Shown here: positions 32,358-56,839 of the stretch, piece after piece
Layout: every line of letters starts with the position of its first letter
Position numbering within the stretch: position 1 is the stretch's first letter
From: Candidatus Kryptoniota bacterium
GTDB lineage: Bacteria > Bacteroidota > Ignavibacteria > Kryptoniales > JAKASW01
Direction of reading: 5' to 3'
Assembly (NCBI GenBank): GCA_046706365.1
Contig: JBJKPN010000083.1
Location: forward strand, 7,541 to 71,540
Length of the DNA stretch: 64,000 bases
The notes under the pieces: generated by a model
Database searches by the model: none
Told to the model about the DNA's origin: nothing
Seen by the model: only the letters and a program-made list of their open reading frames with translations
Translations under genes and position numbers: made by a program

Positions 32358-32744
32358 GTGAAACGGACTTTTCCACTAACCCCGACCCCTTCCGCGTGTT
32401 GCCGCTGGAGGATCCGCGCGTCTTACGACCGGTACCTGCCCAACGTGATCGGTTATTTGACATCTCCGATACTCCCTGCCGGTAACCCTTCTCCATATTT
32501 GCGAAACAAGAGAAATACAACCCAACCTCGTTAAGCCTGGCGGCGAATAACAGCTCCCGTTAGAGCCGAAAGTTCACTACTGCAGAGATGTGACCCGATA
32601 ATTTTCATTATTATCGAAACTGCCCCTGTCACCAAAATCTCCCTCTCATCCCACCAAACAGTGAATCAACACCTAGAATACAGAACCCGTTGTGTTCTTT
32701 GTTTCCATTCGCCTCGTTGCTGATTATAAAACGGAATCATTCGC

Positions 32745-33422: not shown

Positions 33423-33430
33423 GTGCTCAT

Positions 33431-34018
33431 ATGAACGGTTCTTCGCAGCATCTCAAGGCGAAAGTAATATTCTCACTGTCGACGATAATTGTTCTGATCC
33501 TCTGCAGCGGTGCACTCGCCTGGGTGATAACGCAGCGTATCGAGCAGAGCGAGAGGACGACGGACACGGCACACATGTTCAAGGAAGCCGAGCTCCAGCT
33601 GAGAAGAGAGGAGAAGAACCTTTTGATAAGGGGTTATTCGGCGGAGAGATTTCATCGCTGGCAGGAGGCGAAAGGTGAGTTCTATCAAAAGCTCGGAGAG
33701 CTGATCGGGCAGAAGGCGGTCAGCGATGTCGAAATCGCCGAATTCAAGTCGGACAATTCGGAAATGTCCGATGCATACAGGAGTTTCTTCGATGACATCA
33801 AGTCCGGGACACTGACCGAGACGGAGGCAGCGGCATATGACCTGCATTTCAAGACAATCGGCCAGAGGTCTATAGGAAGAATCGACAGCATTCTTGCAAG
33901 GGAAGAAAGTATTTCAAAAGGCATGGATTCGAGGGCAAATCTGTTGACCGCGGTTTTCTTCCTCGTCTTCATAGGGACAACTTCATTTCTGGTCATCAAC
34001 GTACTGAGGAGTCTGTGA
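33431..34018 (+). CDS. Hypothetical two-TM protein with a helical periplasmic (sensor-like) domain and no output domain
   Basis: 195 aa. TM near the N-terminus (VIFSLSTIIVLILCSGALAWVI) and at the extreme C-terminus (LLTAVFFLVFIGTTSFLVINVL). About 130 aa of helix-prone sequence lie between them. The stop overlaps the cobA start (GTGA). Confidence 0.6.
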   Translation: MNGSSQHLKAKVIFSLSTIIVLILCSGALAWVITQRIEQSERTTDTAHMFKEAELQLRREEKNLLIRGYSAERFHRWQEAKGEFYQKLGELIGQKAVSDVEIAEFKSDNSEMSDAYRSFFDDIKSGTLTETEAAAYDLHFKTIGQRSIGRIDSILAREESISKGMDSRANLLTAVFFLVFIGTTSFLVINVLRSL

Positions 34019-35331
34019 CAGTGAAGTACCGTAAAGGAAGAGTGTATTTGGTGGGGGCCGGTCCCGGCGATCCCGGGCTGATCACCGTGAAAGGCCTCGA
34101 AAAGCTGAAACAGGCGGATGCAGTGGTCTACGACAGGCTGGTAAACGACGACTTGCTTTGCTATTGCCGGGAAGATTGCGAGAAAATTTTCGTCGGAAAA
34201 GAAAGTGGATTCCACCCTGTCGAGCAGGAACAGATAACCGAAATACTGATACGGAAGTCCGAGCTCGGTTTGGATGTCGTGCGGTTGAAGGGGGGCAACC
34301 CCTTCATATTCGGAAGAGGCTCGGAAGAGGCAATTGCCCTGGCTCGTGCAGGGATCGACTTCGAAATCATCCCGGGAATCACTTCGGGACTGTCGGCGCC
34401 GGTCTACAGCGGTATACCGATAACCCACCGAGGCATGATAACTCAGTGTGTTCTGATTACGGCACATGAATCGCCCGGCAAGCCGGGCACCCAGGTGGAA
34501 TGGGATAAACTGGCGAAGCTGAAGAATTCAACCCTTGTCATTTATATGGGAGCATCCAGAATTGAAAACATCTGCAGAGAGCTGATCAGTCACGGGGCAG
34601 ACCCGTCAACTCCTGCGGCAGTCATTGAAAACGGCACCCTTCCCAGTCAGCGAACGATCACTGCGAGGCTCGACAATATCGCCGATGAATTCAAGGCGAA
34701 CGGTTTCCATGCTCCGGCAATAATAATGATCAGCCCGACCGTAGCCATGAGGAATGAGATATCCTGGTACGAAAACAAGCCGCTGTTCGGGAAGAGGATT
34801 GCACTTGTCGGGAACAGGAATCAGCTAGAATTGCTGAGTAGTATGGTTTACGACCTCGGCGGAGAGCCGCTGCGGATTCAACTGTCGAATCCGGATTCAC
34901 TACGCACCCTGTTCCACGGCGGCGTAGAGAGCGAGGAGGAGATCTTTTGCGCAAACGACGAATTCCCTTCAAACGGCCCTCGCTACCCGTATGAAGGTTT
35001 GAATGATAACCAACTCCCGCTGGTTTCAGTGCAGAGAACGGCGGATCAATTATACGAGGAACCCCGTGCAGACATAATCGAAGATCTGTGCGAAAACGGT
35101 GCTGATGCGTTTGTATTTGCCTCCTCAAAGGCGGCAGAGAGCTTCTTCGATACTTTGGGACGACCAAAAGGAACGAAGATGATCGAACATACTGCCGTCG
35201 TGGCGGTGAGCAGGGCCGCTGCAAATTTATTGGCCGAGAGCGGCTTGCGCGCGATCAGATACCCCTCGGACTGCACCGCGGGGGCCCTTCACGATTTGCT
35301 TCTGAACCTTTTTTCCAATACTCAGGAATGA
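34015..35331 (+). CDS. cobA/hemD: Uroporphyrinogen-III C-methyltransferase fused to a HemD-like (uroporphyrinogen-III synthase) C-terminal region
   Basis: The N-terminus GRVYLVGAGPGDPGLITVKG is the SUMT signature, and VVRLKGGNPFIFGRG is present. About 190 extra C-terminal residues start at KPLFGKRIALVGNRN and resemble HemD. Confidence 0.8.
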   Translation: MTVKYRKGRVYLVGAGPGDPGLITVKGLEKLKQADAVVYDRLVNDDLLCYCREDCEKIFVGKESGFHPVEQEQITEILIRKSELGLDVVRLKGGNPFIFGRGSEEAIALARAGIDFEIIPGITSGLSAPVYSGIPITHRGMITQCVLITAHESPGKPGTQVEWDKLAKLKNSTLVIYMGASRIENICRELISHGADPSTPAAVIENGTLPSQRTITARLDNIADEFKANGFHAPAIIMISPTVAMRNEISWYENKPLFGKRIALVGNRNQLELLSSMVYDLGGEPLRIQLSNPDSLRTLFHGGVESEEEIFCANDEFPSNGPRYPYEGLNDNQLPLVSVQRTADQLYEEPRADIIEDLCENGADAFVFASSKAAESFFDTLGRPKGTKMIEHTAVVAVSRAAANLLAESGLRAIRYPSDCTAGALHDLLLNLFSNTQE

Positions 35332-36407
35332 ACGTATTCAGCATCTACCTGCCAGCAGCGGGTATTCACTTCAATGCTCTCCTGTTGCTCCTGATCGGAT
35401 TCTGCGTCGGTGTAATCGGAGGGTTCTTTGGAGTGGGAGGCGGTTGGATAATCACTCCCGCACTCAACATTTTCGGATTTCATATGGCGTTCGCGATCGG
35501 GACGGGGCTGTCCGATATATTCGGACAGTCACTCGGGGCGATACGCAAACACAATCGAATGGGCAATGTCGACTGGAAGCTCGGATCATTTTCGATTGTC
35601 GCCTCGCTCATCGGATTCGAAGCGGGTTCCCGAATCGTGATGGCGCTCGAAAGAGCCGGCGATGTCGGAACAATTGTCCGGTGGTGTTACGTCGTATTCC
35701 TGGCGGGCCTCGGCGCCTTCATGTTCTATGACTATTTCGTTTTGCACGGCCGACAACTTGAACGCATCGAGAAAGGACTGACTGAGGCAGGCACTTCTGC
35801 AGACGGGACATCCGGCCCGGCCAGCGTCGCGAAGAAACTTCATAACATCAAGCTCGCTCCCATGATCTCCTTCCCGGATTCAAATATCGAGAAGGTTTCG
35901 CTTTGGGTAATTATCGCAATTTTCCTCGGCACGGGACTCCTCTCGGGTGTACTCGGGATCGGAGGAGGTTTCATAATACTTCCGGCGCTGGTTTACCTGA
36001 TAGGCGTCCCCACGGTTATAGCCGTTGGCACCACCCTTATGACAGTGCTTGCAACCGCTGCGTTCGGATGTTTCTCGTATGCACTTGACGGAAAAGTGGA
36101 AATGCTTGCCGCCGTACTGATGCTCCTCGGTGCATCTATCGGAGCCCAGATCGGGGCAACCGCCATCAAGTTCATCAAAGGTTACGGCATCAGGCTGCTA
36201 TTCGCGATAATGATCGTCTTCACGAGTTTCTCCGTCATAACGGAGCAGTTCTACAAGATGACTCTGGAATCGATATTCCGCGTGTTCTCAGGGATCATCC
36301 TGGTCGGGACGGCATTGGCCATGACTGTGACGATAATCTCGAAGCTGGTAACCGAATTCAGGAAAGAGAACGCGGGCAAGTCGGGAATCACAGACAGGGC
36401 TTCATAA
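35328..36407 (+). CDS. TSUP-family (TauE/SafE, DUF81) membrane protein, array copy 1
   Basis: 359 aa. Duplicated DUF81 GxGGG motifs. The ATG overlaps the cobA/hemD stop (ATGA). Confidence 0.85.
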   Translation: MNVFSIYLPAAGIHFNALLLLLIGFCVGVIGGFFGVGGGWIITPALNIFGFHMAFAIGTGLSDIFGQSLGAIRKHNRMGNVDWKLGSFSIVASLIGFEAGSRIVMALERAGDVGTIVRWCYVVFLAGLGAFMFYDYFVLHGRQLERIEKGLTEAGTSADGTSGPASVAKKLHNIKLAPMISFPDSNIEKVSLWVIIAIFLGTGLLSGVLGIGGGFIILPALVYLIGVPTVIAVGTTLMTVLATAAFGCFSYALDGKVEMLAAVLMLLGASIGAQIGATAIKFIKGYGIRLLFAIMIVFTSFSVITEQFYKMTLESIFRVFSGIILVGTALAMTVTIISKLVTEFRKENAGKSGITDRAS

Positions 36408-36423
36408 AAAGCAGAGTGGGATT

Positions 36424-37461
36424 GTGAGCATAATTAACATTCATCTGCCGGTAGCGGGGATCGAGTTTAGTGCGGTCCTACTGATACTCATCGGTTTCTG
36501 CGTCGGAGTACTCGGCGGATTCTTCGGAGTTGGTGGAGGATGGATGATAACTCCGGCTCTGAATATTTTCGGTTTTCATATGGCATTCGCGATCGGCACT
36601 CCTCTGGCGGATATCTTCGGACAATCTATCGGAGCCGTAAGGAAGCACCACAAGATGGGAAATATCGACTGGAAACTGGGGCTGATTTCCATCACTACCT
36701 CCATTATCGGTGTGGAGATTGGCTCGAGAGTGATAATCGCCCTCGAGAAGGAGGGAGATGTTGGGTTAATCGTGAGGTGGTCATACATCTTTTTGCTCCT
36801 GGTTCTCGGCGCATACATGCTCTACGACTATTTCGTGATTCATCCGAGACAGTTGACTATTGAAGGCAGCGGGCAATTGCCGGGCACAACGAGGTTTGCG
36901 GCCCGCTTGCAAAGAATTACTATACCTCCCATGCTCTCCCTGCCGACTTCCGGAATAGACGGGGTTTCGCTTTGGATCATCCTATTTGTTTTCCTGATCA
37001 CAGGTTTTCTCTCCGGGTTCATGGGTGTTGGAGGCGGCTTCATTATCCTCCCTGTACTCGTATACCTTATCGGCCTTCCCACCACTATTGCCGTCGGGAC
37101 GAGCCTGGTCACAGTTCTGTTCACCGCAGCGTATGGGTGCTTCACCTACGCCATAAAAGGGCGGGTCGAGATCATCGCGGCATTCATTATGCTGCTCGGC
37201 GCATCGGTCGGCGCCCAGGTCGGTGCAACTGCGATTAGATATATCAAAGGATACGGCATACGGCTCCTTTTTGCCACGATGATAATCCTTGCGGGCTTTT
37301 CCATCATAACTGAACAATTCTACAAAACCACGGGTAAGCCGTTGTTCCAGACCCTTGCCGGCATCGTCCTCATGGGCACGGCGGTGGCAATGTCTGCTCT
37401 CATCATTGTCAGGCTGGTGAGAGAATCCAGAAGAGAGCGGTCGACAGCGGAGTCTGCATGA
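36424..37461 (+). CDS. TSUP-family membrane protein, array copy 2
   Basis: 345 aa. Same conserved blocks as copy 1. GTG start 16 nt after copy 1. Confidence 0.85.
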   Translation: MSIINIHLPVAGIEFSAVLLILIGFCVGVLGGFFGVGGGWMITPALNIFGFHMAFAIGTPLADIFGQSIGAVRKHHKMGNIDWKLGLISITTSIIGVEIGSRVIIALEKEGDVGLIVRWSYIFLLLVLGAYMLYDYFVIHPRQLTIEGSGQLPGTTRFAARLQRITIPPMLSLPTSGIDGVSLWIILFVFLITGFLSGFMGVGGGFIILPVLVYLIGLPTTIAVGTSLVTVLFTAAYGCFTYAIKGRVEIIAAFIMLLGASVGAQVGATAIRYIKGYGIRLLFATMIILAGFSIITEQFYKTTGKPLFQTLAGIVLMGTAVAMSALIIVRLVRESRRERSTAESA

Positions 37462-37494
37462 CAAACCCGATTGAATTTCAAGACGACTTGTCCT

Positions 37495-38562
37495 ATGAGC
37501 ATTTTTGATATTCGTTTGCCCGTTGCAGGAATTGAATTCAGCGCTTTGCTGCTGATACTTATCGGGTTTTGTGTCGGCGTGCTCGGCGGGTTCTTTGGTG
37601 TCGGCGGAGGGTGGATTGTGACCCCGGCGCTGAACATTTTTGGTTTCCACATGGCGTTCGCTATCGGGACCGATCTGGCCAACATTTTCGGTCAATCAAT
37701 CGGTGCAGTGAAGAAACACCAGAAGATGGGGAACATCGACTGGAAACTCGGTTCCATTTCCATAATCACATCCGTTATCGGTCTCGAAATGGGCTCCGAT
37801 GTGGTTATTGCGCTCGAGAAAGCCGGAGATATAGGCATCATCATAAGATGGTGCTACATGTTCATGTTAAGCGTGCTGGGGTGCTACATGCTGTACGACT
37901 ACTTCGTCCTTCGAAAGAGGGCCAGGAAAGACAGCGGCACAGCGTCTGAAGACGGGGACGCGCTCAATACGGGCAGCGTCGAGAATCGAAGCAAGGTTTC
38001 GAAGAGGCTTCACAAATTGAATATACCGCCGATGATCTCGTTCCCTTCCTCGGGAATCGAGGGAGTCTCACTCTGGATCATACTTCTCATCTTTCTCTTT
38101 ACCGGATTCATGTCCGGTTTCATGGGAGTTGGGGGTGGGTTCATCATCATGCCGGCCCTGGTCTACCTCATAGGTCTCCCGACGGCAGTTGCGGTCGGGA
38201 CGAGCCTGATAACGGTGCTGTTCAGCGGAGCCTACGGGTGCTTCACCTACGCTATGAAGGGACGCGTGGAAGTAATTGCCGCGTTCATAATGCTGATCGG
38301 CGCTTCCATAGGAGCCCAGATCGGCGCGACGGCAGTCAGGTATGTTGAAGGATACGGGATCAGAATACTTTTTTCGCTGATGATTCTGCTCGCGGCCGTT
38401 TCGGTCGCTGCGGAGCAGCTGTACAAGATCACCGGAAGGGCGCTCTTTCAATCCACCGCCGGGATAGTGCTGATGGGAACCGCCGTGGCAGTATCGGCTG
38501 CGATAATCGGCAAGCTGGTCGTGAAATCAAGGAAAGAAGCAAAAGACAGGGCAACACACTAA
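37495..38562 (+). CDS. TSUP-family membrane protein, array copy 3
   Basis: ATG 37495 (MSIFDIRLPVAGIEF...) aligns with the N-termini of the other copies. The track ORF starts at TTG 37471. Confidence 0.85.
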   Translation: MSIFDIRLPVAGIEFSALLLILIGFCVGVLGGFFGVGGGWIVTPALNIFGFHMAFAIGTDLANIFGQSIGAVKKHQKMGNIDWKLGSISIITSVIGLEMGSDVVIALEKAGDIGIIIRWCYMFMLSVLGCYMLYDYFVLRKRARKDSGTASEDGDALNTGSVENRSKVSKRLHKLNIPPMISFPSSGIEGVSLWIILLIFLFTGFMSGFMGVGGGFIIMPALVYLIGLPTAVAVGTSLITVLFSGAYGCFTYAMKGRVEVIAAFIMLIGASIGAQIGATAVRYVEGYGIRILFSLMILLAAVSVAAEQLYKITGRALFQSTAGIVLMGTAVAVSAAIIGKLVVKSRKEAKDRATH

Positions 38563-38583
38563 ATTCACTAACAGGGCTGAAGC

Positions 38584-39636
38584 ATGAATCTCTTCGACAT
38601 CTACTTACCGATCGCAGGAATAGAGTTCAATGTTCTGTTGCTCATTCTGATCGGGTTCTGCGTTGGAGTACTCGGCGGGTTTTTCGGAGTCGGCGGAGGT
38701 TGGATTGTCACTCCCGCTCTCAACATCTTCGGATTCCATATGGCATACGCAATCGGAACTGATCTGGCCAATATCTTCGGGCAGTCCATAGGTGCCACCA
38801 AGAAACATCACAAGATGGGAAATATCGACTGGAAACTCGGTTCCATCTCGATCGTCGCATCGATCGTAGGTCTCGAACTCGGCTCACAGCTCGTGATAAG
38901 GCTCGAGCACGCGGGCGACGTCGGATCTGTAGTCAGGTGGTGCTACCTGTTCCTCATGTTCGGACTCAGCACATTGATGTTTCGCGATTATTACAAGTCG
39001 CATCCGAGGCAGAAGCACGGCGCGACAGCGTCCGGGAGGGATAATTACCCGGGGCCGCGGAAGGGCGGGAAAACGCTTGCCGAAAGACTCCACAGCATAA
39101 ACATTCCTCCGATGATATCGTTTCCGACATCGGACATTCAATCGGTTTCCCTGTGGACTGTCATGTTCATATTTGCGGTGACCGGCTTTCTTTCCGGGTT
39201 CCTGGGGGTCGGAGGAGGATTCATTAGAATGCCGGCTCTCGTTTACCTCATAGGAGTGCCGACAGTAATCGCAGTGGGGACCGACCTGATGACGGTTTTG
39301 ATCACAGGTGCGTACGGCTGCTTCACCTACGCGATGAAAGGAAGAGTTGAATTCATCGCAGCCTTTTTCATGCTGATCGGCGCTTCGATCGGCGCCCAAA
39401 TCGGGGCAACGGCCGTCAAATACGTGAAAGGATACGGGATCAGGCTGCTCTTCGCAATAATGATTGCGTTTGCAGGATGCTCGATAGCACTTGAGCAGCT
39501 CTACAAAATGACCGGTGAAGAAGTCCTGGGTACGGCAGCGGGACTGGTTCTCATGCTGACTGCTGTAACGCTGACTTCTATTATTATTTTAAGGCTCACG
39601 GTTGAAGCCCGTAAAGAGAGGAAGATGAGAGGCTGA
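38584..39636 (+). CDS. TSUP-family membrane protein, array copy 4
   Basis: 350 aa. MNLFDIYLPIAGIEFNVLLLILIGFCVGVLGGFFGVGGGW... Confidence 0.85.
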   Translation: MNLFDIYLPIAGIEFNVLLLILIGFCVGVLGGFFGVGGGWIVTPALNIFGFHMAYAIGTDLANIFGQSIGATKKHHKMGNIDWKLGSISIVASIVGLELGSQLVIRLEHAGDVGSVVRWCYLFLMFGLSTLMFRDYYKSHPRQKHGATASGRDNYPGPRKGGKTLAERLHSINIPPMISFPTSDIQSVSLWTVMFIFAVTGFLSGFLGVGGGFIRMPALVYLIGVPTVIAVGTDLMTVLITGAYGCFTYAMKGRVEFIAAFFMLIGASIGAQIGATAVKYVKGYGIRLLFAIMIAFAGCSIALEQLYKMTGEEVLGTAAGLVLMLTAVTLTSIIILRLTVEARKERKMRG

Positions 39637-39715
39637 AATGGATTCAGAAGAGTCAAGAGATATTCATACATTAGAAAACACCAAAGCCAACAACAGGCTT
39701 CGGAAGGAGCGGACC

Positions 39716-40039
39716 ATGTCAATCAAGAGGACGGTTTCCATAGTGGCGTTTTCTTTCGTGCTGGTATGCGCCATGCCTTACGCAGAAAGATTGTGTGCCA
39801 GCGCGTACGCGAGCGAGATCGGAGGCAAGAGCGAATCGTCGCTTCAGAAGAGGATAGACACAAAGAACATGACGGGAGTCGACCTGCTGATCGCCAACCT
39901 GTACAACGATGACAGATTAATGTACGCAGTCATGGTAACGCTGGTCATGGCCGGGCTCGGCACAACCCTGGCCTTTCTGACCGATCTCGTCCTGAAGATG
40001 CTGGGCGTCGAGGTAACGCGGATTTCTCATCGAGAGTGA
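39716..40039 (+). CDS. Small hypothetical protein: signal peptide plus a single C-terminal TM helix
   Basis: 107 aa counted from ATG 39716, which has an AAGGAG site 6 nt upstream. MSIKRTVSIVAFSFVLVCAMPYA is signal-like. The C-terminal hydrophobic helix is YAVMVTLVMAGLGTTLAFLTDLVL. The track ORF starts at 39638. Confidence 0.55.
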   Translation: MSIKRTVSIVAFSFVLVCAMPYAERLCASAYASEIGGKSESSLQKRIDTKNMTGVDLLIANLYNDDRLMYAVMVTLVMAGLGTTLAFLTDLVLKMLGVEVTRISHRE

Positions 40040-40162
40040 ACAGATGACCCTCATTGCGGCCGTGCCGTCAGGCATCAGAAAAGGGCGTCCCCGCAGATCT
40101 CACCGGGAAGCCCGCACTACTTCCGATGAATACCGCGGTTCAGGCCGGACGGGCAAAGGCGA

Positions 40163-41704
40163 ATGAAAAAAGTCAAGTCCCTGAGTATATCCACACGTAT
40201 TTCCCTGCTGCTGGGATTGATCATCCTTGTTACTATGGGCACGTTCTCGATTTTCAGCCTCGTGAAACAGGAACAAGATTCCGTGGACTCTCTGAGCCGC
40301 AGTACTCTTTTGCTCAGTCAGACTACCGAGAAGATACTTAGACTCAGCATGTTGAAAAACCGGCGCGACGAAATTTCCATGGCGATAAAGAGCATCGTCG
40401 GAGAAGAGGGGATCCAATCCGTAAGGATTCTCAACCATAACGGTGTTATCAAGTTCTCCTCCAGGCAATCGGAAATCGACGAACATATCTCGAGAACAAA
40501 TCAGCTTTGCTCCAACTGCCACGTTGAAAACGACACCGCCATGATCCACCCCGTCAGTGGTTTTTACAGCTATCACTTCAACCACAAGAACGATATGATT
40601 TACAGTTCCCTTCCAATCTATAACTCACGAAGCTGCTATACGGGGGACTGTCATGCGACCGGGGCGAACGAGGCGTCGGTCGCACCGCCTGACTTGACGG
40701 CCCGAGCCGTCCACGATTCGTCGCAGACCATACTCGGATTCATAGAGATAGAAGTGTCCGCGAAAGAGATAATGTCCAACATCGACAGGACCCGTTCGGA
40801 GCTCATCCTGCTCACTGTACTAATAGCTCTCCTTGCGTCGACCGTCGCTTACTTTTCCATACGACGACTCGTCGGGAATCCCGTCAGGAAGCTTGTCGAG
40901 GGAACGAAGAGAGTCGCACAAGGAGATTTCGGCAGCGAGATTCCTTCCGGCGAAGCTGAAATAGGAATCCTCGCGGATTCGTTCAACACGATGCAGAGGC
41001 AGCTCCTTGCCACCCAATCGCAGTTGATTGAATCGGAGAAACTCGCTTCGGTCGGCAAACTGGCAGACGAGATCGCAAGCGAAATAAACAATCCCCTGAC
41101 AGGGATAATAGTCTATTCGGAAAGCCTGATCGAAGAATCGGAACCCGGGACACATGTCAGGGAAGATTTCGAAGTGATTCTTCAGGAAGCGCTCAAGATA
41201 AGGGAAAGCGTCAGAAACATCCTGTCGCTTGCGAGGAAGGAAAAACCGATCTTCGTGCCCGTCGAACTCGACGGCATAGTCAATCACGCAGTCTCGATTC
41301 TGAAGAAGCTCTCGAATTTCAGGAACATCAGGATAGTTACGGCCATTCCCCGGGTATTCCCGAAAGTGTCTGCGGATCCGGGACTCCTGCAACAGGTTTT
41401 CCTCAACCTGTTTCTTGTCTTCGCGGACAACATGCGGACCGGTGGAATACTGAGGGTTTCTGCTTCGCATCTCGAGCAGGAAGGAGCAGTGGAGATAAGG
41501 CTTTCAGCTACCGGTGGGGAGATATCCTGGCATATTATGGATGCCTTGTCTGAACAGGGTGCCGTCGACGATGCAGGCCACATCGAAAAGTCAAGGATCA
41601 GTCTTTCAGTTTGCCGGGATATCGTCGCGCTTCACAGGGGAAGAATTTACGCAAGCGTAGAATCGGAAGCGGAGCCCTCCGTGGTTATAGAGTTGCCTGC
41701 GTAA
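40163..41704 (+). CDS. HAMP-containing sensor histidine-kinase-like protein. The periplasmic domain carries CxxCH and Cx4CH motifs. The kinase core is degenerate (probable pseudokinase)
   Basis: 513 aa. TM1 at aa 12-33 and TM2 at aa 213-233. CSNCH at 40508-40522 and CYTGDCH at 40634-40654. HAMP after TM2. The H-box reads LASVGKLADEIASEINNPL, with Ser (AGC 41078-41080) where His is expected. N-box QVFLNLFLVFADNM, G1 LSATGGEI and G2 KSRISLSV all lack the consensus N, D and G residues. Confidence 0.8.
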   Translation: MKKVKSLSISTRISLLLGLIILVTMGTFSIFSLVKQEQDSVDSLSRSTLLLSQTTEKILRLSMLKNRRDEISMAIKSIVGEEGIQSVRILNHNGVIKFSSRQSEIDEHISRTNQLCSNCHVENDTAMIHPVSGFYSYHFNHKNDMIYSSLPIYNSRSCYTGDCHATGANEASVAPPDLTARAVHDSSQTILGFIEIEVSAKEIMSNIDRTRSELILLTVLIALLASTVAYFSIRRLVGNPVRKLVEGTKRVAQGDFGSEIPSGEAEIGILADSFNTMQRQLLATQSQLIESEKLASVGKLADEIASEINNPLTGIIVYSESLIEESEPGTHVREDFEVILQEALKIRESVRNILSLARKEKPIFVPVELDGIVNHAVSILKKLSNFRNIRIVTAIPRVFPKVSADPGLLQQVFLNLFLVFADNMRTGGILRVSASHLEQEGAVEIRLSATGGEISWHIMDALSEQGAVDDAGHIEKSRISLSVCRDIVALHRGRIYASVESEAEPSVVIELPA

Positions 41705-41705
41705 C

Positions 41706-42101
41706 ATGGCTGAAAAGGTAAAAATACTCGCCATCGACGGAGAGGATATAGTCCTCAGGTCGATAGCTAAGGCGCTCAGGCCGGACGAGAATACCGAGTA
41801 CGCAGTGACAACCGCAAACAATGCGATCGAAGGCCTTAAATTGGTGCGGGGCAATGTGTTTGAGGTGATATTCGTCGATTCCGTTCTGGCCGGCATGAAT
41901 ACCGAGGAAGCATTACGGAGAATCAAGAACACCTGCCCATCCGCCTCGGTTATTTTAATGTCCGGCTATTCGTCCCAACCCTCTGGCGTCGACCGGGACT
42001 TCGGAGATGCGGATGGCCTGCTGTCCAAGCCTTTTTCGGGTTCGGAGATTAGGTCCCTGATATCACGTATATTAAATGAGCGCAAAGGTCGAAGTGAATA
42101 G
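41706..42101 (+). CDS. Stand-alone response-regulator receiver domain
   Basis: 131 aa. KILAIDGEDIV (DD pair reduced to DG), IFVDSVLAGM (D58 acceptor), VILMSG (S86), LSKPF (K108). No output domain. Confidence 0.8.
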   Translation: MAEKVKILAIDGEDIVLRSIAKALRPDENTEYAVTTANNAIEGLKLVRGNVFEVIFVDSVLAGMNTEEALRRIKNTCPSASVILMSGYSSQPSGVDRDFGDADGLLSKPFSGSEIRSLISRILNERKGRSE

Positions 42102-42148
42102 AGTGAAGATTCGCATCCAGAACCCTGCGCGCAAGCACGAGAGAGTTC

Positions 42149-44800
42149 GTGACGATATTCAAGAATATATTCAGCCGAAAAAGAGCCGAACCGGTTTCGT
42201 TCAAGGATAAGCTCCATCACTTCCAGCGGCTTCTATTTTCCAACGACGAGGCCCTGAAACTAATGGGGAGTCTCAGCGAAATCATAGTTTCGGGAAAGCC
42301 ATTCTCAAAAGGGGACATATTTCCATTCTATTCCGATATACTGACAAATATCGAACAGGTGACCCGGCACCTTTCAGCCATGTGCGGCGGCAGATACAGG
42401 ACGCTTGCCTCCCGGGTTAAAAAGATTAGGGCAGACTGCGATAGCCAACTCGCGCCCGCTCCGTTTTGTCAGGAAAGGTGGGCGTGTGAAAAGGCCAATT
42501 GTGACGGGTGTGAAAAGCGGTCATATCCTGTCCAGGACTCGCCATACTCTTACCGCGTGGACGAGATAACTTACAACCACACACGTGAAGTCGGCGGCAA
42601 GATGAGCCGGCTTTGCGAGGTACATAACCGGTTGGATATTCCCGTCCCGGACGGATTTTGCCTCACGGCCAAGTGTTTCGAAGACTTCCTATCGCAGGAT
42701 GAATTGTATTCAAAGATTGACGAAGCTATATCGTCCATCGATTTCAACGATAATGCCCAGGTCCAGGAGGCGAGCCGGATCATCCAGGCGCTCATCGTGG
42801 CCTCTCCTATTCCGCCCATCATCGAAAGCACCGTTCTCGAAGAATACGATCGCCTTTCGGCCAGGCGCGGTGAGACTCTTGTAGCCGTCAGGTCAAGTGC
42901 CGTCGGGGAGGACGACCTGCATTTTTCGTTTGCCGGATTGCATTATACCGCACTCAATGTAAGCAGGGCTAATCTGGTCGACGCCTGCTTCGAAGTAATG
43001 ATCTCGAAATACCTGCCGCAGTCGCTGGTCTACCGATATATGATGGGCCTCAGAGATGTCGATATGCCTATGAGTATCGGCTGTATGCAGATGCTGGACT
43101 CCGAAGTCAGCGGGGTTCTCTTCACGAAGGACCCTCTGAGAAACAGGGATGAAATAATCATCCAGGCGGTAAGAGGTCTCGGGACTAAAGTGGTTGACGG
43201 AAGCGTGGAGGCACAGGAGTTCATAGTGGAACATTCTGAAAACTGCAGGATGCTTTCGTTCAAGCCCGGCAACCAGGATTATATGGCGACAGCCCGCCCC
43301 ACAGACGGACTGTACGACGAGCAGGTACCCGCCGAATTGAGACGCAAGCCATGTTTGGATGGGAACCAAATCAGGCAGATCGTGGGATACGCTCTCAGGA
43401 TAGAAGAATACTACGGTTCGCCGCAGGATATCGAATGGGCTATCGACGAGGACGGCAAAGTTTACATTCTGCAGTGCAGGCCTCTCGCGGTTTCAGAAGA
43501 GGCAGGCAACCACGAAGAAACAGGACCTCTATCGGAATCAACAGATGTGGAGCGTACTGCATTAATCGACAAGGGCGAATGCGCCAGTCCGGGAATCGGG
43601 TCGGGCAAGGTTTTCCTTTCAAACAGGTCAAGGGATCTTGTGAATTTCCCAACAGGGGGCGTTCTGGTTGTCAGAAAGACCTCACCGGAGTTGACCAGAG
43701 TTCTCCACAAAGCTGCAGGACTTATCGCGGATGTAGGAAACACGACAGGCCATCTTTCAATCATTGCCCGGGAATTGAAAATACCTGTACTTGTGAATAC
43801 GGGCGATGCTACTTCCCGCCTTTCGAACGACATGCCGATAACTGTCGACGCCGGCGCCCACAAGGTCTACCTCGGACTCGAAACACCTGCCCGGCCAGCG
43901 GATTCAGGAAATGTCAATTCGAGCAGCTTCATGCGGAGCCCGATGCACAGAGTATGGAAAAACATAGCCGAGTCGATAATACCTCTCAACCTGACCGATC
44001 CCGACTCTCCTGAATTCTCGCCGGACCACTGCAGGACATTGCACGATGTGACGAGGTTTGCACACGAGTATGCAATGAGGGAGATGTTCTCGCTTTACGA
44101 AGCCGCTGAGGATCAAGACAGGCAGGCATTCCCATTGAGGTTCCCCGTCCCCCTGGACGTCTACGTCATCGACCTCGGAAACGGACTTCAGAAAATAGAA
44201 GGACGGAAGTTCATCACCCCTGAAGACATCACATCCGAACCGTTCAGCTCACTAATCAAAGGGATGACGGCACCCGGCGTCAAGTGGGCGGGGCCGCTCC
44301 CGATCGACCTCAAAGGCTTTACAAACCTTCTGATGGCAAATATCGTCGATGCCGGAAGAAGCGATAGGGCTCTCGGCGGCAGGAGTTACGCGATCATCTC
44401 AGACTGCTACCTGAATTTCTCTTCGAGACTCGGATATCATTTCTCGCGCCTTGACGCTTACGCGAGCGAAGAGATCAACAATAACTATATCAACTTCGAC
44501 TTCCGGGGCGGCGCCGCGGATCCTTTGAGAAGAGTGAGAAGGGCCAGAGTCATAGCAAGGATTCTCGAGCGCTCCAATTTCTCTGTCACCCTGCAGAACG
44601 ACAATGTCCTTGCAACCATAAGGAAGATCTCCGCTTCGGCTATCTACGAGCTGCTGCACGAGATCGGAAGATTGATGGGTGCGGTACGAAATGCCGACGT
44701 TACGCTGATTACTGACGACAGCATAGAACAATTCGTCAACGCTTTTCTCAGCGGAGACCCGGCTCCCGCTATGCGGTTCACCGAAAGGCCTCCTGGCTGA
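42149..44800 (+). CDS. PpsA-like enzyme: Cys-rich N-terminal extension, PPDK_N ATP-grasp domain, PEP-utilizer swivel phosphohistidine domain, about 310-aa C-terminal domain of unknown function
   Basis: 883 aa. GGKMSRLCEV..IPVPDGFCLT, VAVRSSAVGEDDLHFSFAGLHYTALNV, QDIEWAIDEDGKVYILQCRPL (ATP-grasp). LIADVGNTTGHLSIIARELKIPVLV (swivel His). I recognise no PEP-utilizers_C TIM-barrel motifs in the last about 310 aa. N-terminal motif CQERWACEKANCDGCEK. GTG start. Confidence 0.75.
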   Translation: MTIFKNIFSRKRAEPVSFKDKLHHFQRLLFSNDEALKLMGSLSEIIVSGKPFSKGDIFPFYSDILTNIEQVTRHLSAMCGGRYRTLASRVKKIRADCDSQLAPAPFCQERWACEKANCDGCEKRSYPVQDSPYSYRVDEITYNHTREVGGKMSRLCEVHNRLDIPVPDGFCLTAKCFEDFLSQDELYSKIDEAISSIDFNDNAQVQEASRIIQALIVASPIPPIIESTVLEEYDRLSARRGETLVAVRSSAVGEDDLHFSFAGLHYTALNVSRANLVDACFEVMISKYLPQSLVYRYMMGLRDVDMPMSIGCMQMLDSEVSGVLFTKDPLRNRDEIIIQAVRGLGTKVVDGSVEAQEFIVEHSENCRMLSFKPGNQDYMATARPTDGLYDEQVPAELRRKPCLDGNQIRQIVGYALRIEEYYGSPQDIEWAIDEDGKVYILQCRPLAVSEEAGNHEETGPLSESTDVERTALIDKGECASPGIGSGKVFLSNRSRDLVNFPTGGVLVVRKTSPELTRVLHKAAGLIADVGNTTGHLSIIARELKIPVLVNTGDATSRLSNDMPITVDAGAHKVYLGLETPARPADSGNVNSSSFMRSPMHRVWKNIAESIIPLNLTDPDSPEFSPDHCRTLHDVTRFAHEYAMREMFSLYEAAEDQDRQAFPLRFPVPLDVYVIDLGNGLQKIEGRKFITPEDITSEPFSSLIKGMTAPGVKWAGPLPIDLKGFTNLLMANIVDAGRSDRALGGRSYAIISDCYLNFSSRLGYHFSRLDAYASEEINNNYINFDFRGGAADPLRRVRRARVIARILERSNFSVTLQNDNVLATIRKISASAIYELLHEIGRLMGAVRNADVTLITDDSIEQFVNAFLSGDPAPAMRFTERPPG

Positions 44801-44843
44801 CTAACCGGCCCGAATACAACCGGACATTTTTTCTTCACCATCC

Positions 44844-45983
44844 CTACGGGACCTCGCACTGCAATTGAACCTCGAGAATGTCTCCTGCCCGATTGTCCCT
44901 CCCTCTCCAAATGAGATAGTTGCCCTGCACTCTGACATTTGAAGCGATCAGATACGTAGCTCCGAAAACATAGTCCGTCGAAATCATGTCACGCATGCTC
45001 ACATCGGGATTATAAGTGTCGAAGCGGGCGGCGATCTGCAAGTCTCTCCCGGCCACATAATAGGCGGCCTGCAAGTACCCTCCCCTGCGACTTATCGCCC
45101 CGTCATTTCCGCCGATATACTCCCCGGAGATTTCGAGTGGAGAGTCAGCATAGTCAAACTCGAGTCCGAAGCGAGTCCTCCTGCCGCTGACAGGAGGGCT
45201 GCCCCACACATCAAAACCGTCGTAGTAGGAAACCCCGACATGTATCTCCCGGACGGGTTGGATCACAATTCTCCCGCAAAAATCCTTTGCGTCGTTCCTG
45301 TCCGGCACGTTTATGCCGGAGCCGTTGAAGACACCTGCGGCATATTCCAGCGAGGACGTGCTGTCGCAGCCGGCAAGTCTTCCGCCGACTTGCACTCCGA
45401 CATCCCGCCCGGACTGATTCCCGGCAACGTCGCCACTTCGGGCCACCAAAGACTCCACAACCTGGGAGCGGTCTATGAAATCGAGTCTGGCCGAAGACAT
45501 CAGGTTTTCCCTGGAAAAGGGAATCTTAAATTGGCCGGCCTTCACACGCAAGAACCGAAACGGCGAATAGTCGATATAAGCGTCGAGCAATCTGGGGGAT
45601 GCGGCAAAATCGGCCTGAAAGAAGTAGGACCATGGCTCCGTCACCCTGCCGGCCAGGCTAAACCTCATTCGCCTTATGTCTGCGCTGCTGATCCGGGACG
45701 TATCACCGTCCGATAGTTGATACCTGAGTTGGACATAACCGCCGAAGTGAGGAAGCAAGAGTGGCGCAGAAGATGGTGGGTTCCTTTTGTCTGTAGTGTC
45801 ACTGAAGGGCGAATCAACTTGAGGGTCCCCCGCTTTGCAACCGACCTCCAGTCCGGAGAGCTGAGAAAAGTCCGGCGCAAGGCGGGCGGGATTTGCCCCT
45901 GCACCGGCAGTTAAGAATGAGATTGCAACCGGGATGATCAGGTTAATTCGCATCGGATGATCCGGGAAGGAGATCGCGGGCAA
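44844..45983 (-). CDS. Phosphate-selective porin O/P (OprO/OprP) family outer-membrane anion porin
   Basis: FFQADFAASPRLLDAYIDYSPFRFLRVKAGQFKIPFSRENLMSSARLDFIDRS is a typical Porin_O_P block. The signal peptide begins at the internal Met (ATG 45953, MRINLIIPVAISFLTAGAGA), which is the likelier start. Confidence 0.8.
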   Translation of the reverse strand: MPAISFPDHPMRINLIIPVAISFLTAGAGANPARLAPDFSQLSGLEVGCKAGDPQVDSPFSDTTDKRNPPSSAPLLLPHFGGYVQLRYQLSDGDTSRISSADIRRMRFSLAGRVTEPWSYFFQADFAASPRLLDAYIDYSPFRFLRVKAGQFKIPFSRENLMSSARLDFIDRSQVVESLVARSGDVAGNQSGRDVGVQVGGRLAGCDSTSSLEYAAGVFNGSGINVPDRNDAKDFCGRIVIQPVREIHVGVSYYDGFDVWGSPPVSGRRTRFGLEFDYADSPLEISGEYIGGNDGAISRRGGYLQAAYYVAGRDLQIAARFDTYNPDVSMRDMISTDYVFGATYLIASNVRVQGNYLIWRGRDNRAGDILEVQLQCEVP

Positions 45984-46021: not shown

Positions 46022-47206
46022 CTACGAGGACGCCACGACGGAGCCCCGAACGACATTTTCCTGCTTTGCCCGTTCTGCCACCCTTGCCTTAACCGCGGCG
46101 ACGTAAATGGCAAGCGGCCTGTACAATAGGTGTCCCCATTTCCCGAACGGCACCTCCACCACGAGCATCGGGACGACGACCGCCATGTGTACGGTATAGA
46201 TAACATATGTAGCCATCGCCAGGTTATTGACGCGGAAAACATGAAGAAGAATGCCCGTGAGCGCCGCCAGGAACAGCAATATCGGAAAAAGCCAGTCGGA
46301 AAAATGGCTGAACCTGTGCATCCCGGTCCGTTTCTTCATTCTGTCGATGATCATCCATATTGTGGCTATCATCAGTACGCCCGTTGCGTAATACCCTAAG
46401 AAGCTCGTCCAGTGAATGCTGCTGTCGTCCACCTGGAACCAGGGCAGGAATACGACGACAAGCGTGAACATGATGCCGTAGCCGCTGACGAGGAAGAGAT
46501 GGCGCAGCCAGTTCTTCATTTCCGTGCCGCTGCCGCAGTCCTTCCATCGAACTTGTGTCACGCCCTGAACAATCATGTACGGAAGCTGAGTGATGTACAG
46601 CCCCAGGGGTATCCTGTCGCCGCGCGTCATAGCCGCGAACATTCTGGCCGCATTTATTAGCAGCAGGAGACCGAGAGTCGCCGCCATAATTCTGTCGCCC
46701 ACATCAACTATCCCCACCGGCGCAAACCGGTCGAGCATAACGGCAGACAACGGCGCAGGTCCGGAACGGCCGAGCAAACCGAAACCGAAATTCGACGGCA
46801 GGATGAACAGCAATACAATCGCGGCCGCCACCGAGGCGAGGATGCCGATCTCCCAATACACGGATCTGTACATGAGCCGGGATAAGCCTGTCCAGTCGTA
46901 CTTCGAAGTGGCGTATCTTCTCATCGCCATCATTGTTTCGCCCGGCTCCGCTTTGCGCGGGCATCTTTCCGAACAATCCCCGCAATAGAAGCATAGCCAT
47001 GGACCGGGGTCTTCAAGCAGCCGGTCTTTCAATCCCCATTGTGCGAGGAGCATGGGTCTCCGGGGAAACGGGTCTTCCTCGGTCGAGAGGGGGCAGACTG
47101 CCGAACATGTTGCACATTGATAACATTTCTTGAGGTCCCCCGCACCGTACTTCTGAAGCTCCCTTATAAATTCACTGTCGGGAGTGACCAGGCTTCTATC
47201 GTTCAT
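46022..47206 (-). CDS. qmoC: Quinone-interacting membrane-bound oxidoreductase subunit C (HdrC-like 2x[4Fe-4S] domain + heme-b membrane domain)
   Basis: 394 aa. CYQCATCSAVCP and CFYCGDCSERCP ferredoxin motifs, followed by about 6 TM helices with conserved His. Same strand as aprBA and qmoAB. Confidence 0.85.
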   Translation of the reverse strand: MNDRSLVTPDSEFIRELQKYGAGDLKKCYQCATCSAVCPLSTEEDPFPRRPMLLAQWGLKDRLLEDPGPWLCFYCGDCSERCPRKAEPGETMMAMRRYATSKYDWTGLSRLMYRSVYWEIGILASVAAAIVLLFILPSNFGFGLLGRSGPAPLSAVMLDRFAPVGIVDVGDRIMAATLGLLLLINAARMFAAMTRGDRIPLGLYITQLPYMIVQGVTQVRWKDCGSGTEMKNWLRHLFLVSGYGIMFTLVVVFLPWFQVDDSSIHWTSFLGYYATGVLMIATIWMIIDRMKKRTGMHRFSHFSDWLFPILLFLAALTGILLHVFRVNNLAMATYVIYTVHMAVVVPMLVVEVPFGKWGHLLYRPLAIYVAAVKARVAERAKQENVVRGSVVASS

Positions 47207-47219
47207 AGTGTTTGTGCGT

Positions 47220-48044
47220 TCAAGGTTTTACACTTTGCGATGTCAGACGGGTGCCTGTCGGCCTGCCGCCGGATTTCACCCGCATCGTCTTGTCACCGAA
47301 CAGGCAGTACTTGAGCCATGTGATGCCGAACTTGAGCAGCTCTTCGTCATCCGATTTGATTTCGTTCACCAATTCCTCGTCCACTTCGAATCTTTCCAGA
47401 AAGCTGCTCCCAAAGACGAATTCTCTGAACTTATCTATGTTATAGCAGACGGTGTAAAACATTTCGAGCTTTGCCGGAGTAAGCTGCTTCTTCTCCTTGA
47501 AGAAATCGTGCAGCGAAAGTTCTTTGAACAGCTCCCCCATTTCCGAATAATGCTCGACCCCCTGGTCTGCTATCCAATCGGCCACCGTCCAGTCCTTCTG
47601 CTGCAAATATCCCTGACAGACCGACTCCTCGATCATGAAATAAAAATCTCTTTCGCCGCCCTCCCCACTCTCCTTCGGAGAGGCCACACCGAGCGGAAAC
47701 ATCCTGCAGGACCACGGTCGATCCTCATAAATGGAGCAGCCCTCGGACCGGACGAACGGACAGGACTTCCTCTCGTCGTCGTTCATCTTCAGCATGACCA
47801 CGGGGTGGTTCTGGCTCTCGTCGATGGGAAGGAACGTGTATTTGTCGAGGAATTCCTGCGATGAGATCTTCAGTCTGTTCTTCATCCGGATGATGTCATA
47901 CGGGGTCAGGAAGATGTTGACGTCGGTGCAACACATGTTGAAGCAGCTGATCCCTTTGTGGCAGCTGAACTTGAACCCGCTTTCCTTTTTCATGTGCGGA
48001 TAATCTTTCAGCACGGCCTCTTTCAGATTCTCAAGCTCTTTCAT
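47220..48044 (-). CDS. YkgJ/UPF0153-family cysteine-cluster (putative Fe-S or Zn) protein
   Basis: 274 aa. FSCHKGISCFNMCC near the N-terminus and CPFVRSEGCSIYEDRPWSCRMFP, the family hallmark. Lies 13 nt upstream of qmoC. Confidence 0.7.
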   Translation of the reverse strand: MKELENLKEAVLKDYPHMKKESGFKFSCHKGISCFNMCCTDVNIFLTPYDIIRMKNRLKISSQEFLDKYTFLPIDESQNHPVVMLKMNDDERKSCPFVRSEGCSIYEDRPWSCRMFPLGVASPKESGEGGERDFYFMIEESVCQGYLQQKDWTVADWIADQGVEHYSEMGELFKELSLHDFFKEKKQLTPAKLEMFYTVCYNIDKFREFVFGSSFLERFEVDEELVNEIKSDDEELLKFGITWLKYCLFGDKTMRVKSGGRPTGTRLTSQSVKP

Positions 48045-48065
48045 GGCAGGCTCTTTCGTATCAGG

Positions 48066-48455
48066 TTATTCAATAATCGAATCCCTTAGCGCATCTTTGG
48101 ACCAGACCGGAAGCGGACTCGCGCTCCCGCTCACAGGGTCTTCACTGTACCTGTACGAGATGTTCTGGTTGAACTGCTTCTTCATCCAGTCCCATCCCCT
48201 TACGAAATAGGGGCATTCGTCGTTGAAGCATACGTTCAGGAAGTCGGCATCCCATGAAGACCCCTCCGGGCAGCGCCACATCTTCAGCGGCTGATGGCAG
48301 TGGGGACATTCCCCGATTTTCTCTTGTTTCATTTCGTTCGCAATGTCAGAAAGAAGTATTTGTGCCAGATTCGGGAGCGACTCCTGCCGCTCCCGAATCG
48401 GCGAACTTGTTGCTAGTTGACTATCTGATGGATTGGTCTGGAGAACACTTCCCAC
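48066..48455 (-). CDS. Small Cys-rich (zinc-ribbon-like) hypothetical protein downstream of aprA
   Basis: ECPHCHQPLKMWRCPEG ... CFNDECPYFVRGWDWM. The track ORF overlaps the aprA 3' end by 43 nt. The internal Met at 48332 is an alternative start. Confidence 0.55.
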   Translation of the reverse strand: MGSVLQTNPSDSQLATSSPIRERQESLPNLAQILLSDIANEMKQEKIGECPHCHQPLKMWRCPEGSSWDADFLNVCFNDECPYFVRGWDWMKKQFNQNISYRYSEDPVSGSASPLPVWSKDALRDSIIE

Positions 48456-56787: not shown

Positions 56788-56839
56788 ACGACCTCCCGGC
56801 TGTAAAGCCCATTGATTGCACGACACTTCATCCCGGTAA

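Follow-up and report, generated by a model that had tools for sequence, protein, structure and literature searches.

A PpsA-like protein family with an alpha+beta C-terminal domain in place of the PEP/pyruvate barrel and with conserved gene linkage to TSUP transporters and two-component regulators

The DNA analysed here (hereafter the window) is a stretch of 64,000 nucleotides from a Candidatus Kryptoniota bacterium (assembly GCA_046706365.1, contig JBJKPN010000083.1, positions 7,541 to 71,540 of the forward strand), and the gene under study encodes an 883-aa protein resembling phosphoenolpyruvate (PEP) synthase (PpsA; pyruvate, water dikinase, EC 2.7.9.2). The protein carries the ATP-grasp and phospho-histidine domains of PpsA, lacks the PEP/pyruvate-binding TIM barrel, and ends in a different C-terminal domain that is paired throughout the family with an N-terminal helical extension. 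The gene is linked across phyla to genes for TSUP/TauE transporters, a DVU0150-family small protein, histidine kinases and stand-alone receivers. With about even confidence, the protein is proposed to be a cytosolic ATP-dependent phosphotransferase of the dikinase type, delivering to an acceptor module made of the N-terminal extension and the C-terminal domain and acting on an acceptor tied to TSUP transport; the PEP synthase assignment is essentially excluded.

Domain anatomy of the PpsA-like protein

A preliminary description of the gene, made from the letters alone, had recognised the motifs of a PPDK_N ATP-grasp domain and of a mobile phosphohistidine domain. Both domains were recovered by Pfam (Table 1), and all the peptides quoted in that description were found in the translation of the open reading frame (ORF). 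It had further stated that the last ~310 aa show none of the known motifs of the PEP-utilizers_C barrel, and this agreed with the results of Pfam, NCBIfam, a PDB profile search, AlphaFold2 and Foldseek. No match to PEP-utilizers_C (PF02896) was obtained in the 883-aa protein at E<=1 or among 36 family members at E<=5, and when the 36 C-terminal domain sequences were compared with Pfam one by one at E<=5, no weak family recurred. The two terminal regions (aa 1-140 and aa 571-883) were scanned separately, as had been suggested, and neither matched a Pfam or NCBIfam family; the helical subdomain of Enzyme I (EI) was among the Pfam families to which the N-terminal extension showed no similarity.

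The NCBIfam equivalog models of PpsA were aligned only over profile positions 5-466 of 784-798, with scores well below their cut-offs (NF005057, E 2.9e-99, 333.2 bits against a cut-off of 598; TIGR01418, 314.5 bits against 739.75). The sequence matches in the PDB, 8a8e (the best, E 1.5e-62), 9dae and 2ols, ended just past the His domain. When a profile was built from 61 sequences related to the C-terminal region, it matched the PpsA, PPDK and EI chains of the PDB only through its His-domain columns.

AlphaFold2 models computed with family alignments were confident, the C-terminal region reaching a pLDDT of 82.5 and the full-length protein one of 82.9. The structural C-terminal domain begins at about aa 598 (nt 43940), past a low-confidence linker, and makes up the last ~285 aa, and linkers of low pLDDT were found on both sides of the His domain (aa 451-466 and aa 581-588). 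In the model, aa 631-655 of the domain form a long helix and aa 746-786 an antiparallel meander of four strands, there is another hairpin with helices on its flanks, and the predicted fold is alpha+beta, not an alternating (beta/alpha)8 barrel. In a Foldseek search of the domain against the PDB, nothing was found with E<0.01 or TM>0.22, and no PpsA, PPDK or EI C-domain was retrieved; the weak matches to arginine kinases, the MotA C-terminal domain, RecJ/DHHA1 and the AlaRS C-Ala domain (E 0.02-0.4, TM<=0.22) were rejected as noise. The full-length model was aligned to PpsA 2ols over 467 columns only, at 29% identity. A confident alignment of the C-terminus to the PEP/pyruvate TIM barrel was thus sought in several ways, and none was obtained.

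In public annotation (K01007, 'phosphoenolpyruvate synthase') the protein is an ordinary PEP synthase, which would have to possess a diverged C-terminal domain. The best NCBIfam and PDB matches are indeed to PpsA, the JGI and NCBI names of family members say the same, a PPDK_N ATP-grasp domain is followed by a PEP-utilizers His domain in the order known from PpsA, and the nucleotide-binding residues and the TGH catalytic motif are identical. These likenesses end with the matches themselves near profile position 466, where the bit scores remain far under the equivalog cut-offs; with PF02896 missing from the window protein and from 36 relatives, a predicted fold other than (beta/alpha)8 and a Foldseek result free of PpsA, PPDK and EI C-domains, the PEP synthase assignment is already contradicted by the computations and is essentially excluded. 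PEP cannot be the phosphate donor, because the PEP-binding barrel is absent. The window protein further differs from PpsA in having the N-terminal extension and, in this clade, a four-Cys knuckle, and its gene context consists of transporter and two-component genes and not of gluconeogenesis.

An ATP-grasp domain, a phospho-His carrier on flexible linkers and a separate domain on the acceptor side form the layout of the dikinase superfamily, and all three were found here. This scaffold has been re-used repeatedly with new acceptor domains, for rifampin, phenolics, glucans and prodigiosin precursors. In rifampin phosphotransferase (RPH), PigC and RedH, as proposed for the window protein, the ATP-grasp domain loads a swivelling His that delivers to a substrate domain other than a TIM barrel. 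The possibility that the window protein is itself a xenobiotic or antibiotic phosphotransferase of the RPH or phenolic-phosphate-synthetase kind, or a ligase like PigC and RedH, draws on this shared superfamily, on NCBIfam models of RPH, PigC and RedH that match the ATP-grasp domain at 1e-54 to 1e-60, and on structural agreement with RPH (TMt 0.87 for the ATP-grasp domain against the ATP-binding domain 5hv6; TMq 0.42 for the full-length model against 5hv2). However, the substrate domain of RPH and PigC is central and not similar to the C-terminal domain described here, and the His domain of these enzymes is C-terminal, whereas in the window protein the His domain is central and the C-terminal domain follows it. 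The scores were 184 against a cut-off of 999 for RPH, 190 against 1300 for PigC and 205 against 1350 for RedH, no RPH chain was present among the 50 best listed Foldseek matches of the C-terminal domain, and linkage to a transporter and regulators beside core respiratory genes is unlike that of resistance genes. A function of this kind is also essentially excluded.

The C-terminal domain family and its conserved residues

To define the family, a hidden Markov model of the C-terminal domain alone was searched against 1.84 billion representatives (50%-identity clusters), and 1,592 clusters were recovered, 807 of them with E below 1e-30. In the best 150 matches the domain was located at the C-terminus in every case, and two architectures were observed in addition to fragments: a long form of ~830-895 aa and a short form of ~390-420 aa (e.g. 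P0074, P0075, P0080 and P0020), in which an N-terminal segment is joined straight to the C-terminal domain. The N-terminal extension of the window protein was aligned with the short-form N-termini by hhalign with a probability of 98.8% and E 5.4e-17. Since the N-termini of the short forms are homologous to it, the extension and the C-terminal domain are regarded as one module with the ATP-grasp/His cassette placed between its parts, and the two would be expected to pack against each other as one structural unit.

Short proteins of ~400 aa consisting of the extension and the C-terminal domain, without the ATP-grasp and His domains, were located at L001 10001-11230, L083 7001-8230, L084 575-1882 and L036 ~2433-3605. 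Their genes adjoin DVU0150 and TauE genes, and in many cases tandem universal-stress-protein (Usp) genes come next and a long form is in the vicinity. Several database 'fragment' proteins of the family (e.g. P0005, 543 aa) are assembly or gene-calling artefacts and not true short architectures, and in a long-read metagenome (L002, ERZ25039463 contig_130443, 8548-11632) the receiver and PpsA-like genes are split by apparent frameshifts.

The first ~140 aa had been described as an extra, Cys-rich domain. The extension and its Cys motif are real, but the extension is a family-wide helical module and not an accessory Cys-rich domain. The four-Cys knuckle at its junction with the ATP-grasp domain was present in 106 of 114 close (FCB-clade) orthologues versus 1 of 91 family representatives; it was modelled with a pLDDT of only 60-67 and is an addition specific to the clade, perhaps forming a metal or redox site. 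A look-up in the contig collection did not return the exact 883-aa protein. The identical product in NCBI (P0121, 845 aa) has its annotated start at M39 (window position 42263 instead of 42149). Because orthologues with 62-83% identity to the 883-aa protein align from residue 1, the GTG at 42149 is the better start, and the public start probably cuts into the N-terminal helical module. No membrane segments were predicted in the 883-aa protein.

Residue conservation was computed over 98 diverse full-length family members with a threshold of >=95%. The positions reaching it were G149, K151, R248, S249, S250, E254, D255, E419, E429, Q442 and R444 in the ATP-grasp domain, H535, R541 and E542 in the His domain, and H632, D633, R636, H639, E640, N756, H764, N779, G787, G788, R798, D818 and D850 in the C-terminal domain, where the motifs HDxxRxxHE, NFSSRLGYHF, NYIxFxFKGGAAD and RRxRR are present. 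With the ATP-grasp residues and His535 conserved to this degree and the barrel absent, the reading of the protein as a dikinase or phosphotransferase, first offered on motifs, gains support from sequence conservation. Where overall identity is ~35%, invariant His, Asp, Glu, Arg and Asn in such numbers are to be expected at an active site or a ligand-binding site for an anionic group, possibly with a metal, and in the C-terminal domain the conserved residues would cluster into one pocket that binds the acceptor, probably together with the metal. The short forms retain most of these residues.

At 10 loci with adjacent long paralogues, both copies keep His535 and all the ATP-grasp residues except for one E419A, and a few second copies are substituted at 2-5 positions, among the C-terminal domain residues or T533/G534. 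A pseudo-enzyme status of one copy in such pairs was ruled out, as His535, the nucleotide-binding set apart from the one E419A and most of the C-terminal domain residues are kept.

By analogy with the dikinase chemistry of PpsA, PPDK and RPH, the ATP-grasp domain would bind ATP and phosphorylate His535 of the mobile domain, and the mobile domain, held on its two flexible linkers, would then swing to an acceptor module different from that of PpsA. This module would be the C-terminal alpha+beta domain, which co-occurs family-wide with the N-terminal three-helix bundle, and its pocket of invariant His, Asp, Glu, Arg and Asn would bind the acceptor, probably with a metal, and take the phosphoryl group. 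The acceptor would most likely be a small anionic compound dealt with by the DVU0150-family/long-TSUP transporter encoded alongside and, as a tentative proposal for the window, probably a sulfur oxyanion. Activity or expression may be under the control of the adjacent heme-type histidine kinase and stand-alone receiver.

Gene linkage and the alternatives to a metabolic phosphotransferase

Loci were collected from one genome per GTDB species with a 14-sequence alignment of the C-terminal domain as query, and linkage was counted by query-based phmmer, because antisense ORFs of high-GC loci had contaminated an all-vs-all clustering of stop-to-stop ORFs. At least 595 loci encode relatives of the C-terminal domain, and the closest relatives (66-84% identity) belong to metagenome-assembled genomes (MAGs) of Kryptoniota, Ignavibacteria and Bacteroidota. 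These relatives, and a protein of the window that ends in a sorting domain of the type IX secretion system, assign the window to the FCB group. In ~25 FCB loci, the whole string of 3-5 TSUP genes, the DVU0150-like gene, the histidine kinase, the receiver and the PpsA-like gene is syntenic beside qmoC, aprAB, sat and qmoAB, and in sulfate reducers of the FCB clade the cluster is part of the sat-apr-qmo-dsr island. Of 55 other loci, many of them truncated, 27 had a TSUP gene within 8 kb, 21 a histidine kinase, 20 a receiver and 12 another family member.

Several arrangements were observed among these loci. The order DVU0150-like gene, TauE, long form was found in MAGs of Kapaibacterium, Ignavibacteria and Deferribacteres and in Hyphomicrobiales-labelled MAGs; a Thermodesulfobacteriota contig carries DVU0150, TauE, Usp, histidine kinase, receiver and long form, with a divergent short form and Usp genes; another locus has histidine kinase, receiver, TauE, an unannotated gene and the long form, adjoining a short form and a Cytidylate_kin2 gene; in yet another the long form is followed by a receiver; and an Anaeromyxobacteraceae MAG encodes Sat, a DVU0150-like protein, TauE and a short form. 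A check of neighbourhood conservation had been recommended in the preliminary description, and linkage to TSUP, histidine kinase and receiver genes was found to recur across phyla: the association with the DVU0150-family protein, 'long' TSUPs, a histidine kinase and a stand-alone receiver spans from Kryptoniota and Ignavibacteria to Thermodesulfobacteriota and Desulfovibrionaceae.

Because the gene so often travels with receiver, histidine kinase or sigma54-activator genes, a serious rival to the metabolic phosphotransferase is a signalling enzyme in a two-component pathway. His535~P, formed with ATP, would pass its phosphate to Asp58 of the adjacent receiver in the way that EI supplies HPr, or transfer would run in the reverse direction, or the phosphorylated receiver would bind the N-terminal extension and C-terminal domain to switch the enzyme, and the output would be TSUP expression or gating. 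A stand-alone receiver adjoins the gene in the window and adjoins family members in distant lineages of other phyla (L042, L049, L081, L053, L075, L083, L084 and L085). EI binds its protein substrate through a helical bundle N-terminal to the swivel His. EI and EI-Ntr (PtsP) of the phosphotransferase system resemble the window protein in having a swivel His domain preceded by a partner-binding helical subdomain, a His domain of the PEP-utilizer type is put to regulatory use there, and the His domain of the window protein matches EI N-terminal domains at 1e-8. In contrast, EI is loaded from PEP through a TIM barrel and has no ATP-grasp domain, whereas the window protein has an ATP-grasp domain and no barrel. 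In Nitratidesulfovibrio the gene lies 4 nt after that of a sigma54 activator, with the TSUP and DVU0150 genes transcribed divergently (PMC4641369).

The C-terminal domain fits a signalling role less well, since more than 10 of its His, Asp, Arg and Asn residues are invariant at ~35% identity and look catalytic or small-ligand-binding more than like a docking surface, and the short forms carry the extension and the C-terminal domain without any His domain. Kapaibacterium, Ignavibacteria and Hyphomicrobiales-labelled loci place the gene straight after the DVU0150-like and TauE genes with no regulator between, and as histidine kinase and receiver genes are common, chance may explain some of their co-occurrence (20-21 of 55). 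The signalling enzyme is consequently considered possible but on the whole unlikely.

A further alternative is an adaptor or sensor of the transporter, in which the extension and the C-terminal domain would sense ligand or flux for DVU0150/TSUP in a PhoU/Pst-like manner, and the ATP-grasp and His domains would regulate the protein itself as an input of the energy state, with no external acceptor. The short forms, which adjoin DVU0150, TauE and Usp genes, are in keeping with such a role, as are a linkage to the transporter that is stronger than that to any metabolic enzyme and a module that stays constant while the upstream sensors vary by lineage (heme histidine kinase, dCache-PAS histidine kinase, Cache-like sigma54 activator). 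However, the complete catalytic ATP-grasp and His residues are conserved across the long forms, as would suit an enzyme that really turns over and not a relic, a membrane-binding segment is absent from the protein, and physical interaction with the TSUP is without evidence. An adaptor is thus rather doubtful.

Several observations weigh against the ATP-dependent phosphotransferase with a TSUP-related acceptor as well. No acceptor was identified, and no experiment on any family member was found in the literature searched. The gene is often beside regulators (receiver, histidine kinase, sigma54 activator) and not inside the transporter operon, an arrangement that fits signalling as well as metabolism. 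Since the short forms keep the C-terminal domain residues and lack the ATP-grasp and His domains, the C-terminal domain has a function without a phospho-His in cis. The clustering of the pocket and the packing of the extension against the C-terminal domain are deduced from conservation and co-occurrence and not read off the model coordinates, and the chance occurrence of a TSUP gene, roughly 5% per 20 kb, is an estimate and not a computed control. Finally, sat was nearby in only 1 of the 55 non-syntenic loci, and family members are present as well in lineages that are not known to reduce sulfate (Anaeromyxobacteraceae, Phycisphaerae, and Hyphomicrobiales- or Anaerolineales-labelled MAGs), so that the link to sulfate is weak outside the FCB clade.

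For the window, a sulfur oxyanion may plausibly be the acceptor, because the gene lies in the context of a sulfate-reduction island and because the TSUPs of sulfate reducers are candidates, though unproven, for carrying sulfate or sulfite (PMC5840216). That the DVU0150/long-TSUP/PpsA-like module is an ATP-dependent step in the sulfur-oxyanion handling of sulfate reducers, controlled by a periplasmic heme-sensor kinase and a stand-alone receiver, is an improbable proposal, put forward tentatively. If it held, two phosphoanhydride bonds would be consumed by the dikinase, and the phosphorylation would serve either to trap the anion that the TSUP brings in, by phosphorylating it, or to gate the TSUP.

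The locus of Nitratidesulfovibrio sp. HK-II was compared with published data from Desulfovibrio vulgaris. On one strand of HK-II are TauE (350 aa) and a 97-aa protein named "DVU0150 family" by NCBI; on the divergent strand is a sigma54 activator of 979 aa, whose N-terminal region is long and whose C-terminal tail resembles a winged helix, and 4 nt after it comes an 873-aa family member. The DVU0150-DVU0146 operon has been described as controlled by sigma54 and DVU0151 and is annotated "transmembrane transport" (PMC4641369), and according to a second report, which cites earlier transcriptomics, the operon is induced during syntrophic growth without sulfate and repressed when sulfate respiration resumes (PMC4265775). 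The HK-II arrangement agrees with what has been published on DVU0151 and the operon that it targets. By synteny, rather than from the D. vulgaris Hildenborough genome itself, the orthologue in that strain is presumably the gene next to DVU0151, DVU0152; no mention of DVU0152 as a family member was found in the literature searched. DVU2956-2958 had been considered as the counterpart and was dropped in favour of DVU0149-0152, because the small HK-II protein is named as DVU0150 family and the activator has the long N-terminal region and winged-helix C-terminus of a DVU0151-like protein. The window resembles this locus in combining a DVU0150-family protein and long TSUPs with a family member, the first two being divergent from the DVU0151-like activator in HK-II. 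It differs in its regulator, a heme-motif histidine kinase with a stand-alone receiver, and in having four tandem TSUPs located beside sat, aprAB, qmo and dsrMKJOP.

The family is sizeable, uncharacterised and mis-annotated. About 1,600 clusters at 50% identity are labelled 'pyruvate, water dikinase', 'PEP synthase' or 'PEP/pyruvate-binding' although they are without the PEP/pyruvate-binding domain, and counting them as gluconeogenic PpsA in metabolic reconstructions of sulfate reducers and FCB-group MAGs is probably a mistake. The family adds to the dikinase scaffold a further putative acceptor domain, which lacks a Pfam model and for which no solved fold could be detected, and the enzymology proposed is a plausible extension of a known theme. 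Neither a dikinase-TSUP link nor a characterisation of the family was found in the literature searched, which also does not describe the cross-phylum coupling of a dikinase-like gene to DVU0150/long-TSUP and two-component signalling genes by sulfate-reduction genes. Sulfate import in dissimilatory sulfate reducers and the roles of their many TSUPs are still unresolved (PMC5840216). The genetic tie of the long-TSUP/DVU0150 pair to an ATP-dependent phosphotransferase and two-component regulators offers a testable handle on TSUP function, including in the tractable Nitratidesulfovibrio and D. vulgaris Hildenborough, and the sulfur-oxyanion module, if true, would provide both a function for the TSUPs of sulfate reducers and a new acceptor chemistry in the dikinase superfamily.

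The gene cluster in the window

The features of the PpsA-like gene and its neighbours are listed in Table 1. The co-directional string runs from the siroheme genes through four TSUP/TauE genes, the DVU0150-like gene, a HAMP histidine kinase and a stand-alone receiver to the PpsA-like gene, and the Pfam-annotated gene order bears out the earlier placement of this gene as the last of a TSUP, sensor and receiver cluster.

Table 1. Features of the PpsA-like gene and of the co-directional gene string in the window (positions in the window; aa, residues of the 883-aa protein)
Feature	Position	Strand	Basis or remark
PpsA-like ATP-grasp / swivel-His gene	42149..44800	+	GTG start, 883 aa, ORF present in the window
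N-terminal extension, three long helices (aa 18-48, 54-78, 84-101)	42149..42460	+	AlphaFold2 secondary structure
Four-Cys knuckle C107-x5-C113-x4-C118-x2-C121	42467..42511	+	Sequence; junction of N-terminal extension and ATP-grasp domain
PPDK_N ATP-grasp nucleotide-binding domain	42587..43522 (aa 147-458)	+	Pfam PF01326, E 2e-83
PEP-utilizers mobile phospho-histidine domain	43646..43852 (aa 500-568)	+	Pfam PF00391, E 1.6e-18
Catalytic His535 codon	43751-43753	+	Motif GNTTGH
C-terminal domain, predicted alpha+beta, in place of the PEP/pyruvate TIM barrel	43940..44788 (aa 598-880)	+	AlphaFold2, conservation
Siroheme genes	32745-35331	+	Upstream part of the co-directional string
Four tandem 'long' TSUP/TauE (345-363 aa)	35328..39636	+	Pfam E 1e-43 to 1e-47
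Small membrane protein, DVU0150-like	39716..40039	+	NCBIfam NF040783, transmembrane scan
Membrane histidine kinase (transmembrane segment, ~175-aa periplasmic domain, transmembrane segment, HAMP, HisKA, HATPase)	40163..41704	+	Pfam, transmembrane scan
Stand-alone receiver REC (131 aa), 47 nt upstream of the PpsA-like gene	41706..42101	+	Pfam

The tandem TSUP copies are 60-64% identical to the first copy. These 'long' TSUPs of ~350 aa have insertions and an extra C-terminal hydrophobic segment, which are common to the window and to Desulfovibrio/Nitratidesulfovibrio P0402 (41% identity), and a generic TauE of 300 aa (31455-32354, + strand, 3 kb upstream of the tandem copies) is without them. 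The variable central loop of the TSUPs was considered as a phospho-acceptor and found to be a poor candidate, because the loop is not conserved.

The small ORF after the TSUP genes has a hydrophobic N-terminus, read as a signal peptide, and a C-terminal transmembrane helix. It was matched weakly by NF040783 (E 4.7e-11 but 43 bits, below the 70-bit cut-off) and by no Pfam family, PF28216 of the DVU0150 family included; by phmmer it is homologous to ORFs carrying PF28216 in L001 and L002, and it is probably a distant member of the DVU0150 family. In the periplasmic domain of the histidine kinase, for which no Pfam match was obtained, the heme-c-type motifs CSNCH (nt 40508) and CYTGDCH (nt 40634) were observed; CXXCH was present in 21 of 21 orthologous kinases, including that of a Deferribacteres MAG (L033), and CX4CH in 16 of the 21, which suggests a c-type-heme redox or ligand sensor. 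When the receiver sequence is inspected by eye, D58, S86 and K108 look like its canonical residues.

Downstream, the convergent genes encode a porin, a QmoC-like protein, a CxxCxxCC protein, an Ogr/Delta zinc-finger protein, AprA, AprB, Sat, QmoB and QmoA, and genes of the DsrMKJOP type are found farther on, so that the cluster lies inside a sat-aprBA-qmo-dsrMKJOP island. The qmoC-like gene (region 46022-48455, - strand) scored 239 bits against a cut-off of 300 and is separated from qmoAB by sat-aprBA. The CxxCxxCC (PF03692) and Ogr/Delta zinc-finger genes precede it, the trio is syntenic in FCB-clade loci, and a CxxCxxCC gene is also found after the family member in the Nitratidesulfovibrio loci L061, L064 and L070. 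A Cytidylate_kin2 (PF13189) gene (55957-56826, - strand) is located between qmoA and a CoA-disulfide-reductase/rhodanese gene and recurs beside genes of the C-terminal domain family in two unrelated contigs (L084 1957-2808 and L085 7684-8071).

In a scan of 32000-45200 for sigma70 promoters and terminators, the counts were ~1.6 and 2.6 standard deviations above those of shuffled sequences with no clear relation to gene boundaries, FCB promoters being outside the model. The SirC-like and CobA/HemD genes have between them a gene (33431-34018, + strand) for a protein of 195 aa, which contains two hydrophobic segments and matches nothing in Pfam or NCBIfam; its position is conserved in syntenic FCB loci. 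Farther upstream are a 2,127-aa ORF of undefined nature (22719-29102, - strand) and a gene for a 777-aa arylsulfotransferase-domain protein with a C-terminal sorting domain of the type IX secretion system (20083-22416, + strand).

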